Origin: a virus | Lineage: Duplodnaviria; Caudoviricetes | Virus record (IMG/VR): IMGVR_UViG_3300036984_000039 | Location: 1-64,000 of that record | Direction: 5' to 3' (one strand) | Length of the DNA: 64,000 nucleotides | Shown here: positions 29,135 to 54,264 of the stretch, piece after piece | Numbering within the stretch: the stretch's first letter is position 1 | How the letters are laid out: each line of letters opens with the position of its first letter | Notes under the pieces: generated by a model | What the model was told of the DNA's origin: nothing | The model's input: the letters and a program-made list of their open reading frames with translations, nothing else | Databases searched by the model: none | Program-made: the position numbers and the translations under genes

Positions 29135-30296
29135 GTCAACTGTTCTCGACTTCATCCGAGGGCTTGTCCCTACTCTTGCGGCACTTGATTCAGGAGCGAG
29201 ATGTCTGGCCGGTTGACGGCGGCCCGGCTGATATTCACAGCCGCGTTAGTATCGGCGTTCGCGGAGAACCCGCACGATACACAAGAGAAGGTGCTTTGAT
29301 TTCGACGATTGCGCTTATCGATACACCCACAGACTTGACATCTTCGACTGGTATTCCGTGGATCGACGGCGATCACTGGCACACCAGAAAGCGCCGCTTT
29401 GTAGGTTATCTTTGCGCGCAGATCGTTGAATGACCATGAGCTATGTTGCCTCCGCTGAGCTTTGTGTACCGTTACCCGATCACGGATGCCCGTTAGTTCT
29501 TCAAGGGCAATCCCACGTCCGGTGTCTTTTGCTCTTGCAACAAGTTCTTTTGAGATGCGATGGTTTTCCTGTTTGGCGAAGCGCGATTCCTTACGGCGGC
29601 GTTTTACCAATAAACGCCGGGCCGCTTTCGTGCCCTTGCGTTGTAGACGTTGACGCAAGCGTGCATGACGGTGACGCAATCCATTTACCTGGCCGCCTGC
29701 ATATTGGTTGCCGTCCGAGTCCGATGCGATATTCTTGATACCCATATCTACACCAAGAAACTCAGTTACATCATCTGGTGTAGGTTCCAAAACCTCGCAG
29801 GCTGTCAGTAAGTAAAACTCGCCATCAATCAGACACAAGTCGGATTCACCGCGCTGCCCGGCCAGAAGATCGAGCGCGCGCGCATAAGCAACGAATGGTA
29901 TTTTCTGCCGACCGTCTACCGTCCAAATCGACACTTCGCTCTTGGCGAGTTTCCAGGATAAGATACGACTGTCGAAGGCGATAGACCCTAACGGTCTGAA
30001 TACGCGCTTAGCATTGGAATCGAGTCTATAGGCGTCAGTCACCTTAGCGATACAACGAATGACGACTTGGGCGGTCAGCGGGAAGGCGGCACGCACGTCA
30101 TGGTAAACCAGGGATTGCAACTGAAACTTACCAAATGTGCGAGTATCCCACGCCACTTCGCTGATATAGTTACAAGCGAAGTTCGCTTGCTCAAGCGTGC
30201 GCTTCAAGGCATCACCTTGCGCGGTAGTTGGTTGAAGTTTTACCTTAGAAGTCAGTCGCATAAGCACATCATAGCACACTATCACTATAGTGACAA
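29135..30296 (-). mobile_element. tnpB-only IS200/IS605-type element
   Basis: Right end GGGACAAGCCC...AGTTGAC; promoter TTGTCA-17-TATGAT at 30268-30296; no tnpA. Confidence 0.7.
29170..30261 (-). CDS. tnpB: TnpB RNA-guided nuclease (intact RuvC)
   Basis: GVDMG, ALEEL, TSRRC..C...C..C, NADTNAA. Confidence 0.92.
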   Translation of the reverse strand: MRLTSKVKLQPTTAQGDALKRTLEQANFACNYISEVAWDTRTFGKFQLQSLVYHDVRAAFPLTAQVVIRCIAKVTDAYRLDSNAKRVFRPLGSIAFDSRILSWKLAKSEVSIWTVDGRQKIPFVAYARALDLLAGQRGESDLCLIDGEFYLLTACEVLEPTPDDVTEFLGVDMGIKNIASDSDGNQYAGGQVNGLRHRHARLRQRLQRKGTKAARRLLVKRRRKESRFAKQENHRISKELVARAKDTGRGIALEELTGIRDRVTVHKAQRRQHSSWSFNDLRAKITYKAALSGVPVIAVDPRNTSRRCQVCGCIDKRNRRNQSTFSCVSCGFSANADTNAAVNISRAAVNRPDISLLNQVPQE

Positions 30297-31359: not shown

Positions 31360-31388
31360 AGTATAGCAGATTATGGCCCGTTTGTCAA
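31360..31388 (-). promoter_or_regulatory. Early-type sigma70 promoter TTGACA-17-TATACT
   Basis: Member of the repeated promoter family. Confidence 0.85.
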
Positions 31389-31417
31389 GTGGCAATATGG
31401 GCCAATTTAGGATCAAT

Positions 31418-32870: not shown

Positions 32871-33733
32871 GACACTCCGCATAGACTAAATCCAGCGGCT
32901 TCTTGAACTTACGTCCAAGCTACGGGTATTACTACCTGGCCCGTGTCCGGGCGTCTACGCATACTCCGCTTGCCAAAGGCAGCCGGTCTACGATGCTTGA
33001 TTTCCGTGGGCATCGGCAATCGTCCTGGCTCACCATGTTTGTATGACGAGAGGATATTGATTTGCCCTACTATGTCGCGGTGCCCACGGAAGCCACAGAC
33101 CGAGCAACGATAGACGCGCCCCTGTGGTTTATGTCGATTACCGCAACTTGGACAAGTTTGACTTGTATACGCTTCGTTTTGCAGTTTCACGGCGATACCC
33201 TCTGCCGCGGCCTTATACGTGGTATACTTGCGTACCTGACCGTGATTCCAACCGCTAACTTTCTGATTTGTGCGCTTGCCGAGCGCAACTTCATCGGCCA
33301 CGTCGCGCACATCGCCGTAGACGATAGTCGCCGCGCCCAGGACAACCGCTTCGTCTACAATCGCCCGGCTGATTTTGTGTTCCATATCGCGCAACACGCG
33401 GTTGTGCTTGGCTTTCATACGAGACTTGACACGCACCAACTTCTTATAGGCTCGACTACCGCGCTGCTTGCGGCTCAGGGACTTATCCAGAGATGCCAAT
33501 CGCTTGGCGTGACCTTGCGCTTCGTGCCGACGTTCGCGACAAGTGATGATAGTCGCACTGCTTTCATCACCAATTACAGCAGGATGAATCTCACCCGGAT
33601 CGACGCTTACTACGTTCATGCCCGGTGCTGACTTGGGTTGCTTGCCGTTTTCAACGACCACGTGCCAGGTGTAGCGCCGGTCGCGCTTGTCGAAAACCAA
33701 CCGCTGCACTGGTTCATATTCCGAGTAGCGCAT
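32871..33733 (-). pseudogene. tnpB: N-terminally truncated tnpB with its right end
   Basis: SVDPG, YGDVR, TSQTCPSC, HRDIVG. N-terminal HTH/REC region missing. Right end AGAAGCCGCTGGATTTAGTCTATGCGGAGTGTC. Confidence 0.8.
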
Positions 33734-33992
33734 TACGCTCGGCTTCCGGCAGAAACATCGGACGATACCATGCGCGCGGCATGTTGGCGTCAATCCAGGC
33801 CAGGGCTGTAGTGCTAACCATGAGCCAAACAACGGCCAACATGGATGACGGGTATCCTTCGATATCATCCGTCCAGCGAACCATTGCCTTGTTGGCGGAA
33901 TCGCCTTTGACGGCGGAAAGCACGGCATCAGCCTGTGATTCAAACATGCCGTTTGCGACCAGTTCTTTCCTTGCCCACTGCTCAAATGTCAC
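33714..33992 (-). CDS. Conserved-type small phage protein
   Basis: AAGGAG RBS; ALAWIDANMPRAWYRPMF. Confidence 0.6.
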   Translation of the reverse strand: MTFEQWARKELVANGMFESQADAVLSAVKGDSANKAMVRWTDDIEGYPSSMLAVVWLMVSTTALAWIDANMPRAWYRPMFLPEAERNALLGI

Positions 33993-34069
33993 TTTGATCT
34001 CCTTTCCTGCGAGCGGGTGATCGGCCCTTCCGCCCGATGAGGTACGGCGCTCAATCACCCGCCCAATGG

Positions 34070-34240
34070 TCATTCCTCGTCGCCGTCTTCGTCGGCGTAT
34101 TCCGCGATTTCCTTGCAGACCTCGATCAGCCGCTTGCGCGCCCACGCCTCGTCTTCGCTCAAATCGTCGTCCATGTTGTCGCGGCAGTCCCGAAGGTCTT
34201 CCAACGTGTTCTGAAACCTGCAATAGCTCATGTTCGCCAT
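34070..34240 (-). CDS. Small phage protein (MANMSYCRFQNT type)
   Basis: AAGGAGG RBS; recognisable N-terminal motif. Confidence 0.7.
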   Translation of the reverse strand: MANMSYCRFQNTLEDLRDCRDNMDDDLSEDEAWARKRLIEVCKEIAEYADEDGDEE

Positions 34241-34254
34241 CTCACCCCTCCTTG

Positions 34255-35128
34255 TCGATCCGCACGTAAAACGGGCGGCTGGTCGGTCTCTGAAACACCG
34301 ATGCGTTGTGCCCGCGACCTTACTTGATCGGTCGCATTCATCACTTTTGAACAAGTTGGATCGGCAGCCAGCAACGCCAAGAAACTGGATCAATCCTTTG
34401 CTATCAGGTGCGCGCCCGTGTCGGATTTCTACCGCAGCAGCCGCCGCGCTTCAGGCATTTATGCGGGCGGGTTGTACGGGATGCCACTCCCGGCCAGGTC
34501 GCTTCATTCCCCGGCTGACCGACGCGCACCTGATAGAAAAGGATTCGATTTAGGCTCACGACACTTGCTCCGAGGTCTGCCTGTTAGCACACCTGCGCTT
34601 GACTCGTCCACATGGGTACTATGCCTACGCAGCCGGGTTCCATATCGGTGTCGGCTTGCCTACGATTATCATTCTTACTTATCCCTCATCACGCCGCGCC
34701 TCACGCTACCGAGTAGTCCTACGGTAACGGTCTGCTTGGGCTGTACCTGTCCGGGTTGCTATCTGCGGCTGCCTCACGGCATGACGCTCTTACCAGTCCG
34801 TCAACTCGCTGGCGTGTTAGCCCGGTGTCAGCGTTTGAACCTGCGCCACGGTTGCCCGTGCTTCGTGTCCACGCGCCTCCTGTTCATTACAGGGTATCAC
34901 CCGCGCTCACCGATCTGCTCTCGCCAAGTCACCGATCCGCCAGAACGGGTCGGGTGGCAAGTTTTGCGATTCGCGCTTTGTGATTCGAGAACTATGTGGA
35001 AGCGCCTGCAAACTGGTGGCTACGAGGTTCCGGTAAGAGGCCATCTGCTGTCATCCTTGCGGTGGCCCCCGCCATTCCTCTCGCCTGCGATGCGCTTCGG
35101 TTGTCAAGGTGCCTGCTACCCACCTACA
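34255..35128 (-). ncRNA. Large structured non-coding RNA (~880 nt), family unassigned
   Basis: Own promoter, no credible ORF, several long-range helices and GNRA hairpins. Confidence 0.7.
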
Positions 35129-35133
35129 AACAC

Positions 35134-35162
35134 AGTATAGCACAACCCGCTATGTTTGTCAA
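35134..35162 (-). promoter_or_regulatory. Sigma70 promoter TTGACA-17-TATACT
   Basis: Repeated promoter family. Confidence 0.85.
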
Positions 35163-35205
35163 GTGGGTAAACAGGGCAATTTCAGACCAATTTCAACGAG
35201 CTTGT

Positions 35206-35493
35206 TCAAAACTCTACGCCTTCTTCGGCCATGCGGGCGCGGCGTAGCTTGGTGTACTCGGCGCGCCCTTCGATGGTCATGCCGGACATCATGCGCCCGC
35301 GACAGGTGCGCCGATAGTAGTCCTCTCCTTCAAGCGGCTCGGTTTCGATGGCTTTGCACGCCGCGATGTAGGCGAGATATTCTTGCGTCCATGCCGCGCT
35401 AGGCCAAAATCCCGACCCGGTGTGCATCAACACAGGTTGCCGTGTACCCCTGACGTGTTGCTTCTGCCAACGCATGGCCTGGGCGTAACTCAC
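35206..35493 (-). CDS. Hypothetical protein
   Basis: GGAAGGA RBS, GTG start. Confidence 0.55.
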   Translation of the reverse strand: MSYAQAMRWQKQHVRGTRQPVLMHTGSGFWPSAAWTQEYLAYIAACKAIETEPLEGEDYYRRTCRGRMMSGMTIEGRAEYTKLRRARMAEEGVEF

Positions 35494-35610
35494 GCTTGTC
35501 CTTCCTTCGGCGGTTTGGGCGTCATGGCCGCCAGGGTCTCCTTGAGCGACCGCTTCGCCCAATCGAGGACTTGACGTACTCCCACGGCTAAAGCTCGTGG
35601 GATTCTGGGG

Positions 35611-36756
35611 TCAAACAGCAAGCGCCGGGCTTACCGGTCTTACCTCACCTAACCCAAGAGAGCACGCCCGCTCTCCTTCACTACGAATGTTCTTAGCTGC
35701 ATTATGGTCGCGGTCATGGATCGCGCCGCAGTTGGCGCATGTCCAGCGCCGTTCGGTCAAGCGCAACCCCTGATACAGCCATCCGCAGTCCGAGCATGTC
35801 TTGCTCGACGGATAGAAGCGATCCACCAGTGCCACGAGCTTGCCTTTGGTGCTGGCGACATAGCTTAGAATGCCCATGAATTCCGACCGGGCCAGATCGC
35901 TCACTTTGCGACCCCACAACCGAACCATGCCGCGCATGTTTAGATCCTCAAAGTACAGGTAATCGTACTGGTCGGTGAGCATGTGTGCCAGCTTGAAGAA
36001 CCAGTCCCGGCGCTGGTTGACTACTCGTTGGTGAATGCGTGCGACGCTCAGCTTGGCCTTACGCCAACCATGCGACCCTTTTACCTTGCGTGCTAAGTTC
36101 TGTTGCGCCAACTTCAACTCAGACATGACCTTCTGATAGTACAGCGGTGACTCGATCACCAGTCCCATGTCCGTGGTGATAAACGCTTTCAGCCCAAAAT
36201 CGAAACCTGCGCTGTTACCCGACATGATTCGGTTGCTTTGGTCTTCCGACATTTCTACCACGAAATAGAGCCAGAGCGCGCCCAAGTTATCGCGCTTGAT
36301 CGTCAACGTCTTGACCTCGGCCGGAATGTCACGGCTCTTGCTGTACTTATAAACCCGACCGCGAATCTTGATTCGATTGCCATCCAGCAACTTCCAACTG
36401 TTATGCTTGAGCGTGAAGCTACTGTATTTCTTGACCTTTTTAAAGCCGGGTGGTGAAGCCTTGACGCCCACTTTCAGGTTGTGAAAGAATAGCTTGTACG
36501 ACCGCTCAATGCGTTCCGCGATGCCTTGAATTGCTTGGGCATCAACTTCGTTCCAAAACGCGTAGCGTGGTCTCTGTTTGAGTTTGGCAATATGCTTCTG
36601 CAAATCGTACAAATTCAAATGTTTACCAGTCAAACGATAGTAGCGCCGATGTAAAGCAATTTCGTGGTTCCAGATAATACCAGCAATGTCGATCTGCTGG
36701 TTCAAGAACCGATTCCGCTTCGCCTTGTAGAGTTTGAACTTGTACGTTTTTATCAT
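35611..36756 (-). CDS. tnpB: TnpB RNA-guided nuclease (intact)
   Basis: KTYKFKLY, GFDFG, FEDLN, PSSKTCSDC, DRDHNAA. Right end GAATCCCACGAGCTTTAGCCGTGGGAGTACGTCAA ends at 35571. Confidence 0.93.
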   Translation of the reverse strand: MIKTYKFKLYKAKRNRFLNQQIDIAGIIWNHEIALHRRYYRLTGKHLNLYDLQKHIAKLKQRPRYAFWNEVDAQAIQGIAERIERSYKLFFHNLKVGVKASPPGFKKVKKYSSFTLKHNSWKLLDGNRIKIRGRVYKYSKSRDIPAEVKTLTIKRDNLGALWLYFVVEMSEDQSNRIMSGNSAGFDFGLKAFITTDMGLVIESPLYYQKVMSELKLAQQNLARKVKGSHGWRKAKLSVARIHQRVVNQRRDWFFKLAHMLTDQYDYLYFEDLNMRGMVRLWGRKVSDLARSEFMGILSYVASTKGKLVALVDRFYPSSKTCSDCGWLYQGLRLTERRWTCANCGAIHDRDHNAAKNIRSEGERACSLGLGEVRPVSPALAV

Positions 36757-36797
36757 CGCGTTGCTCGGTTAAATGACAAGCCGCCCGGTGAAGCCAT

Positions 36798-36928
36798 TCT
36801 TGTCGAGGGAATGTCTGTCGGACGGCCTGTGGTTAGCCCATTACTGGACGATCACCCTATTCAGCTATGGCCTCTTACTACATTCCCTCGACAAGACTTA
36901 TTCTAACACGTCTCGCTCTTTTTGTCAA
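36798..36928 (-). promoter_or_regulatory. Promoter TTGACA-17-TAGAAT (36900-36928) and a leader closed by a 17-bp stem
   Basis: TCTTGTCGAGGGAATGT at 36798-36814 / ACATTCCCTCGACAAGA at 36880-36896. Confidence 0.75.
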
Positions 36929-37190
36929 TGCCTTTTCCCTTCATGTGTGCAAACAACTGCGCAGTACTTTCACGTATTGCTAGTTTGGCCCAAGCTTCGA
37001 CGTACTGCTGCGCGCCCGCGATGGCAAGCGTAATCATGGCCTGGGCCAGCGTAGACCACGGCGCGGGACTGTCCGACTGAGCCGCGATAAACTGTAGCAT
37101 CGGCACGGCGGCGGCGGGCAGTTCGGCTCTATGCTCGCTGTCGCACCCTTCCAGGCCGATGATCCTCACGGTGATGGTTGCCACGGTCAT
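36903..37190 (-). CDS. Hypothetical protein with an apparently replaced C-terminus
   Basis: AAGGAGG RBS, ATGA overlap. Confidence 0.6.
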   Translation of the reverse strand: MTVATITVRIIGLEGCDSEHRAELPAAAVPMLQFIAAQSDSPAPWSTLAQAMITLAIAGAQQYVEAWAKLAIRESTAQLFAHMKGKGIDKKSETC

Positions 37191-37495
37191 TCCTCCTTGC
37201 GACTCAGGCCAGGATACCACGCCGAAGCCGAGAGGATGCCCTGCTGGTCGTCGGCCCACTGGCGAGCCATCAGCGCCACGACGCGCGCCCACGTGCCTTG
37301 CGGCAGCGTATCGTGCAGTGCCGCGACTAGCGCCTGGGCATCGATCAGCATAGCTTCGTCTACCACGTGTTGCGGCGCACTTGGTGCAAACGCATTACTG
37401 GAAAGCGACTCAAGCATTTCGATTTTCAAATCGGGCGGCGGCGTGTCGCTCCGCCGAACTGTAGCTGCCTTGAAAATGTAAATATTACGTTGCAT
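37187..37495 (-). CDS. Hypothetical protein
   Basis: Coupled ORF in an operon. Confidence 0.6.
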   Translation of the reverse strand: MQRNIYIFKAATVRRSDTPPPDLKIEMLESLSSNAFAPSAPQHVVDEAMLIDAQALVAALHDTLPQGTWARVVALMARQWADDQQGILSASAWYPGLSRKEE

Positions 37496-40000: not shown

Positions 40001-40029
40001 AGTATAGCAGAACTCGCTTGCTTTGTCAA
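40001..40029 (-). promoter_or_regulatory. Sigma70 promoter TTGACA-17-TATACT
   Basis: Repeated promoter family. Confidence 0.85.
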
Positions 40030-40063
40030 GTGGGCAACATGACCAATTTGAGACGAGTTTTCC

Positions 40064-42533: not shown

Positions 42534-42562
42534 AGTATAGCACCGTTCACGTCGTTTGTCAA
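42534..42562 (-). promoter_or_regulatory. Sigma70 promoter TTGACA-17-TATACT
   Basis: Repeated promoter family. Confidence 0.85.
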
Positions 42563-42685
42563 GCGGGTAAATGAGGTATTTTTACATGAGTTTTGAGGCT
42601 GCGGCGAGAGATTTGCCGGGCCGGAAGCGACTCGATGCTTCCACCTGCCAGGCCCGTCGTGGTGGTCGCGGTGCGTGAAACGAGG

Positions 42686-54220: not shown

Positions 54221-54249
54221 ATCATAGCACAAGTCCGCCTGTTTGTCAA
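54221..54249 (-). promoter_or_regulatory. Sigma70 promoter TTGACA-17-TATGAT
   Basis: Repeated promoter family. Confidence 0.85.
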
Positions 54250-54264
54250 GTGGGCAATATGATA

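Follow-up and report, generated by a model that had tools for sequence, protein, structure and literature searches.

What does a phage encode in ~880 nt that follow a consensus promoter and hold no credible gene? The question arose from a sequence-only reading of the window, the 64-kb stretch of DNA analysed here, which forms the first 64 kb of a 107.5-kb phage record in IMG/VR and appears to originate from a sediment metagenome. This reading had proposed that positions 34255 to 35128 specify one ~880-nt structured noncoding RNA, recalling giant phage RNAs such as GOLLD or ROOL, or perhaps several RNAs in tandem. Comparison of the locus with its relatives indicates that the stretch is a mosaic of separately inherited modules and not one 880-nt RNA. 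With slightly better than even confidence, we read the locus as an uncatalogued, clade-restricted, modular phage noncoding RNA that is probably cut away from the downstream mRNA. Its conserved functional part is most likely the ~470 nt from 35127 to 34660, which comprise a domain A, an optional domain B and a junction C, the remainder being exchangeable.

The relatives used for this comparison were four metagenome contigs, L006 to L009, obtained in one metagenome scan, and read-derived variants, X22 and X3, from public runs; in runs X2, X3, X8 and X22, the parts of the stretch without contig cover carry no information. Neither blastn against GenBank phages and plasmids nor tblastn with the 56-aa protein encoded downstream of the locus revealed further homologues, and scans of viral contigs with six patterns or proteins and of genome contigs with two patterns returned none. 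Members of the RNA family have so far been found only in a few related phages of sediment and freshwater.

Coding capacity of the locus

Genes for a portal protein, a DnaB-like helicase, an SbcD-like nuclease, a ligase and an FtsK-like protein were found in the phage, whose cultured relatives are distant, with portal proteins no more than 30% identical to its own. Near the locus, nearly all genes lie on the minus strand. The ~890 nt behind the promoter on this strand (35127-34241) contain 11-16 stop codons in each frame, with all three kinds represented in every one, and recoding of stop codons was rejected. A search of the minus strand of the locus for a conserved small ORF with a ribosome-binding site found none. 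The untranslated stretch is probably co-transcribed with the 56-aa gene that follows it (Table 1), a position at which contig comparison showed a different gene in the relatives. No terminator was predicted over 33800-35700, so that formation of a discrete RNA would hinge on processing, a candidate step taken up below.

The plus strand carries a 240-aa open frame (34418-35140) that was absent from the earlier reading. With a single stop in 295 codons, compared to ~8.5 expected from base composition by our own estimate, this frame might be taken for a gene; it is also open in L006 and was called by a gene caller on an ENA contig (protein P0002). However, the low A content of the plus strand (16.7%) makes stops scarcer, and the frame lacks a ribosome-binding site, runs antiparallel to all neighbouring genes and is broken by indels in L006 and X22, the diverged copy in X22 having 8 net inserted letters. 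Comparison with four relatives revealed substitutions distributed 21/25/35 by codon position, 38% of them synonymous, and 19 gap letters, whereas the flanking genes showed second-position depletion (5/38, 9/55 and 5/44) and 0-3 gap letters. The frame matched no Pfam or PHROG family, and searches of 5.8 billion and 1.84 billion proteins returned only P0002, which is the translation of the same locus on another contig. Given substitutions that are not codon-like, the gap letters and the lack of a family or of independent relatives, we rejected the frame as a gene and consider a plus-strand protein hardly credible. The absence of a credible gene, as read earlier from the letters alone, therefore holds for both strands.

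A promoter of the phage's own family

The consensus promoter of the earlier reading was borne out (Table 1) and is the sole promoter-like site in the 1.9 kb scanned. The stretch made up of its upstream part and the -35 element occurs in five near-identical copies in the window, all on the minus strand, compared to 0.01 expected by chance, and their likeness does not extend past the start predicted near 35127. This recurrence, together with the end of similarity at the start, marks the site as one of what look like the phage's own standard promoters. The promoter is kept in L006 and L009, and the conserved upstream part of the copies suggests a site for a shared regulator. A further stretch resembling the promoter family lies at 99383-99446 of the phage record.

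Shortly past the predicted start lies a motif that we judge, by eye, to resemble the boxA of rRNA leaders. Its core, UU[G/U]AC(A)AA[C/U]CG, is retained in L006 and L009, that is, in three lineages including this phage. A contig from an RNA library (metatranscriptome) spans 34732-34964 in a diverged form; it may be DNA carry-over and gives a weak hint of transcription.

Two further features were noted around the promoter. The region from the upstream gene to the promoter, 35206-35502, holds ~100 codons here, a 185-aa gene in L006 and nothing in L009, a variation typical of promoter modules at which small cargo genes are swapped. An inverted repeat of 11 nt without mismatches (TTTTGAACAAG at 35201-35211 and CTTGTTCAAAA at 34345-34355, minus strand) has its copies where homology to L009 begins (35203) and where block D homology ends (34355). 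Were the intervening cassette removed, the copies would meet in a perfect palindrome of 22 bp; with ~0.1 expected, the arrangement may be due to chance.

Mosaic layout of the untranslated stretch

The minus-strand order of the modules is promoter, A, B, C, a phage-only segment, a palindromic module, block D and a phage-only leader (Table 1). Domain A is present in L006, L009, X3 and, with its 3' part, X22. Domain B is present in L006, L007, L008, X22 and apparently X3 (its 5' hairpin at the contig edge) and absent from L009. Junction C was found in L007, L008 and L009, the sequence after it differing in each lineage, and the ~420 nt 3' of C are specific to this phage save for the 33 nt of block D. 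Thus, the relatives show A, an optional B, C and then lineage-specific segments, a layout that speaks against the proposal of one ~880-nt structured RNA; the other possibility raised in the same reading, several RNAs in tandem, comes closer to the data, given that the modules are inherited separately.

Table 1. Positions of the features described in the text (window coordinates unless a contig is named)
Feature	Position	Strand	Remarks
Sigma-70-type promoter, TTGACA-17-TATACT with extended -10 TG	35134..35162	-	11/12; start predicted near 35127
Promoter copies (TTTACCCACTTGACAAAC and variants)	31380-31397, 35154-35171, 40021-40038, 42554-42571, 54241-54258	-	near-identical stretches
BoxA-like motif (CACCUUGACAACCG)	35095..35112	-	16-33 nt past predicted start
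Domain A	34873..35127	-	conserved; common to all lineages covering A
Domain B	34703..34871	-	optional; invariant core 34830-34732
Direct repeat GAGGCGCG	34695..34702 and 34872-34879	-	copies flank domain B
Junction C (GCGUGAYGAGGGA...AAUGAUAAU)	34665..34702	-	conserved in all lineages
Phage-only segment	34546..34664	-	no counterpart in L007, L008, L009
Palindromic module	34392..34545	-	branched 98-108 nt closed by 23-28 bp stem
Block D	34355..34387	-	33 nt, 94% identical to L007 and L009
Phage-only leader	34241..34354	-	runs into AAGGAGG ribosome-binding site of 56-aa gene
56-aa gene	34073..34240	-	PHROG 8760, E = 7e-19
tRNA-Ala-like element	L007:1505-1600, L008:2612-2702, L009:182-307	-	cloverleaf-like

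Identity of the noncoding blocks to those of the relatives was 86-100%, compared to 80-87% for most flanking coding stretches, and A and B are more conserved than the flanking genes; part of this high identity could stem from recent recombination and not from selection. Domain A is 92% identical to its counterpart in L009, and L006 matches 34727-35185 of the window at 86% overall, with the differences mostly in the first ~150 nt. Within the phage, the blocks resemble nothing else, the flanks of the TnpB genes included, and paralogy with those flanks was rejected because no similar sequence occurs elsewhere in the phage. Iterons or a replication origin were likewise rejected, the direct repeats being only weak and short.

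Analysis of domain A revealed a 5' subdomain with a closing helix (35098-35092/35005-34999), followed by a highly conserved linker, a second subdomain with two helices (34956-34951/34903-34898 and 34948-34941/34917-34910) and a hairpin at 34893-34879. Domain B consists of a variable GNRA-capped hairpin (34860-34847), a core and a terminal hairpin (34726-34722/34711-34707); the 99 nt of the core (34830-34732) are identical in five lineages that vary elsewhere. L009, which lacks B, has one copy of GAGGCGCG, and the pair of copies that flank B in this phage could reflect either insertion of B with an 8-bp duplication or, conversely, deletion of B via microhomology.

Junction C holds GAGGGA-N9-AUG. 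This conserved GAGGGA-N9-AUGAUAAU (34665-34685, minus strand) looks like a ribosome-binding site and start codon, and the frames that follow junction C in the different lineages encode unrelated peptides of 15 aa, ~25 aa and ~115 aa (the latter two read by eye). The motif could mark a module boundary or the start of a leader peptide.

Evidence for conserved RNA structure in domains A and B

Folding energies of A, B and the other blocks outside the palindrome gave z-scores of 0 to -1 relative to shuffles on the transcribed strand, with A and B at about -0.3 to -0.5. Since only the palindrome beats its shuffles, the values for the whole region (-2.5 on the minus and -2.9 on the plus strand) reflect the palindrome alone.

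Comparison of the lineages revealed several changes within predicted stems. The closing helix of A, GAAGCGC/GCGCUUC here, is CAUCACGCA/UGCGUGAUG in L006, where the subdomain inside it keeps its shape and the distal hairpin differs. Elsewhere in A, UCG/CGA becomes CCG/CGG in L009 (a U-A to C-G pair), a U.U mismatch in this phage is U-A in three other lineages, and a G-C pair becomes G.U among the relatives. In B, UACCG/CGGUA is replaced with UGCCG/CGGCA in L007 and L008 (A-U to G-C), and the pair 34839/34741 is U.G here, U-A in L006-L008 and C-G in X22. The GNRA hairpin CACGG-GCAA-CCGUG, which the earlier reading had pointed out, is indeed present at 34860-34847, and two lineages have GAAA or GGAA loops on other stems: the hairpin is GUGCUUGC-GAAA-GCAGGCAC in X22, and the X3 contig starts the same stem as X22 with a GGAA loop.

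Among the changes, five turn G.U into Watson-Crick pairing or the reverse, and each of them works on the minus strand alone, in agreement with the direction of the promoter; both observations uphold the earlier choice of the minus strand as the RNA strand. In total, there are ~5 compensatory events among ~5 lineages, most of them near-identical in the core, and there is consequently no statistical covariation; variable columns in A make up 18% of paired and 27% of unpaired positions, a weak contrast. Overall, the comparative evidence for a conserved RNA structure in A and B is thin but points in one direction only, and we grade it as moderate.

In contrast, the long-range helices proposed from the sequence alone fared poorly in the relatives. 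The 15-bp helix joining 35030-35044 to 34781-34796 can be drawn in this sequence, but in L006 its 5' arm is replaced while the 3' arm is unchanged, and L009 keeps the 5' arm yet has no 3' arm, since it lacks B. For the pairing from ~34995 to ~34600, the 3' arm occurs only in this phage and the 5' arm competes with the closing helix of A, which is kept in L006 with different letters. The third helix, the stem 34392-34414/34523-34545, is real, but it closes a 154-nt module that the relatives are without. Because these helices are not kept or are found only in this phage, they lend no support to a single 880-nt fold.

The variable 3' part and a tRNA-like element in relatives

The inverted repeat of the palindromic module (34392-34419/34518-34545) extends over 28 nt with 89% complementarity, and the module on its own has a folding z-score of -5.8. 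It is single-copy in the phage, is missing from L007 and L009, in which 125 nt separate block C from block D, and had no match in viral contigs. The module is probably an insertion, and its stem, by analogy with known substrates, is a likely target of RNase III. In L007 and L009, block D serves as the 5' arm of a long hairpin, the 3' arm of which is seen in L009 and absent from the window.

In the phage-only segment, UAUGG (34640-34644) and CCUAAA (34549-34554), both on the minus strand and flanked by complementary CGA/UCG, resemble the 11-nt GAAA-tetraloop receptor. Downstream of the 56-aa gene, before the tnpB-like gene, lies a 78-nt intergenic element (33998-34075) with a GGGUGAU...AUCACCC hairpin, which L007 and L008 conserve at 87-90% despite having other genes on both sides of it.

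The noncoding stretch of L007, L008 and L009 closes, immediately before the next gene, with a cloverleaf resembling tRNA-Ala. It combines a canonical T-loop (UUCGACU) with an anticodon-like loop (CYRGCAA), an acceptor-like stem of 9 bp and a weak D arm. In L009, ~35 nt are inserted in the D region, and the three sequences show 3 compensatory pairs. ARAGORN finds the element of the relatives only at the relaxed -ps80 setting. Applied to the window and the whole phage, it found no tRNA, no tmRNA and no tRNA-like element; for the window, all of these were rejected, as was an array of decayed tRNAs.

TnpB genes near the locus

Three TnpB-type genes lie within ~6-8 kb, all on the minus strand (29170-30285, 32909-33985 and 35611-36756). 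The middle one (358 aa), which comes after the 56-aa gene, has a short and atypical N-terminal part. The third belongs to a TnpB element at 35571-36984 (Pfam OrfB_IS605 and Cas12f1-like TNB) that is absent from L006 and L009; at this empty site, matches to 35570-35503 join matches to ~36985-37195 directly.

A guide RNA of an IS200/IS605 TnpB element (omega RNA) overlaps or trails the 3' end of tnpB and ends at the right end of the transposon. The locus lies at least 350 nt downstream of that end in one tnpB element (near 35571) and precedes the next tnpB-like gene. An omega RNA was rejected because the locus has its own promoter and no similarity elsewhere in the phage.

Comparison with known RNA families

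Rfam searches of the window gave nothing at the gathering score, a separate search of domain A gave no match, and the region gave noise only at E <= 10, including matches to isrK and HOTAIRM1 that were discarded as such; the earlier reading's failure to assign a family, for which it had asked for this check, was thus confirmed. No match to GOLLD (RF01998) or ROOL (RF03087) was found in the window at the gathering score, in the region at E <= 10 or in the relatives at E <= 1. Since no known family fits, GOLLD and ROOL are resemblances in size and setting only, and it is to this extent that the likeness drawn earlier stands, whereas the covariance models do not match.

GOLLD and ROOL are phage-encoded noncoding RNAs of 0.5-0.9 kb with conserved and variable parts (doi 10.1101/2024.12.08.627333), they often adjoin or link to tRNAs, and some GOLLD loci carry a tRNA-like element (Kretsch et al., doi 10.1101/2024.12.08.627333). 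The locus is similar in its phage location and in the 3' tRNA-like element of its relatives, this phage itself being without a tRNA, but differs in that its modules are inherited separately. A further difference concerns polarity: the locus is conserved 5' and variable 3', the reverse of GOLLD. The GOLLD model has a conserved 3' half with pseudoknots.

Several other families were considered and rejected. RNase P RNA (RF00010) was searched for because the core of B contains GGUAAGAGCG, presumably as in conserved region II of that RNA; the whole phage gave none at E <= 10, compared to matches in 11 of 14 control genomes. The JUMPstart or ops element (RF01707), the core of which is GGCGGUAGCGUG, scored 13.3 bits against a gathering score of 35 (E = 3), and the U of its essential G-U is C in L007 and L008, within a compensatory change of the stem. 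At 16.7 bits (E = 0.3), a weak match to c4-a1b1 (RF03163) inside the palindromic module fell below the gathering score of 46.7.

Two known systems resemble the locus in layout. In the immI operons of P1 and P7, a constitutive promoter drives a leader RNA that is processed (the c4 antisense RNA, with its a1/b1 targets), and the locus is similar in having a promoter-driven leader RNA followed by a small ORF and a larger gene; however, the palindromic module is missing from the relatives, and there is no match to c4 RNA. With rRNA-operon leaders, the locus shares a strong promoter, a boxA-like motif close to it, a long untranslated RNA and a stem of more than 20 bp, but it is without rRNA, the boxA likeness was judged by eye and the long stem occurs only in this phage.

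Discussion

In the reading that we favour, an untranslated minus-strand transcript would start near 35127 at the phage's own strong promoter, and the unit would work like a small rRNA-type operon, the strong promoter and the boxA-like element letting RNA polymerase traverse ~0.9 kb of untranslated RNA and escape Rho. RNase III would cut the long stem in this phage, and RNase P or RNase Z would cut the tRNA-like element in the sister phages; either cut would free a stable ~0.5-kb RNA acting in trans, separated from the downstream mRNA. The tRNA-like partner in the relatives hints loosely at a role connected with tRNA or translation, of the sort suggested for GOLLD and ROOL. Transcription, processing, antitermination and action in trans are steps that we infer. 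A candidate processing signal always lies between the conserved RNA and the next gene, namely the stem in this phage and a long hairpin with the tRNA-like element in the relatives. Perfect stems of more than 20 bp are typical substrates of RNase III, and tRNA-like elements are typical substrates of RNase P and RNase Z. Counting against this reading, domain B is dispensable in L009.

A bolder form of the same reading, which we put forward tentatively, is that A, B and C make up the core of a new large-RNA family of phages, functionally analogous to GOLLD and ROOL, in which a stable ~0.5-kb RNA would be made from an rRNA-like unit, released by RNase III or tRNA-type processing, and would partner a tRNA-shaped module.

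A reading that we consider rather unlikely, though worth weighing, is that of a long 5' leader acting in cis, in which A modifies the transcription complex or the stability of the message, for instance by processive antitermination of the boxA/Nus or put type for expression of variable downstream cargo, with no function as a free RNA. Such a leader would fit the placement of A, which in every lineage follows straight on from the promoter irrespective of the sequence beyond it, the lack of a terminator before the 56-aa gene, the boxA-like motif near the 5' end in three lineages and downstream genes that vary among the relatives as exchangeable cargo would. However, the other four promoters of the family appear, from their positions and the nearest ORFs, to have shorter leaders of tens to a few hundred nt, and known antitermination RNAs are shorter than 100 nt, compared to ~470 conserved nt here with a 99-nt core far from the start. 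The candidate processing signals, standing between the conserved RNA and the next gene, also argue against a leader that acts only in cis.

That the stretch is non-functional mosaic debris, consisting of scars left by recombination between phages and remnants of small mobile elements that are transcribed incidentally, is quite unlikely. Sharp breakpoints, the 8-bp direct repeat around B and the loss of B from L009, a palindromic module that is an insertion, a block D that is a truncated hairpin arm, the TnpB-type genes nearby and unremarkable folding energies are all consistent with debris. It would not account for A and B outdoing the neighbouring genes in conservation, for stem changes that are either compensatory or run via G.U intermediates possible on a single strand, or for a GNRA loop retained on a wholly different stem, and the blocks resemble neither the TnpB flanks nor any other part of the phage. 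The single giant, ornate ~880-nt RNA of the GOLLD or ROOL kind, with long-range helices, is very unlikely: its size, phage setting and own promoter fit, as does the tRNA-like element of the relatives, which some GOLLD loci share, but RF01998 and RF03087 do not match even at E <= 10, the relatives fail to keep two of the three long-range helices, B is optional and ~420 nt other than block D are absent from all relatives.

The weight of the locus is limited by its very few known relatives. It offers natural variants for tests of the modules, with and without B and with either an RNase III-type stem or a tRNA-like end. Large phage RNAs such as GOLLD and ROOL are abundant and form striking assemblies, yet to our knowledge no function has been assigned to them. 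Every additional unrelated family that behaves likewise, combining a strong promoter with folded domains of modular make-up, a tRNA-shaped partner and signals for processing, supports the view that such RNAs are a general class of phage equipment and not oddities. If the bolder form of our reading is true, an RNA composed of A, B and C together with a tRNA-shaped module may serve, for example, in a takeover related to tRNA or translation, or in counter-defence.
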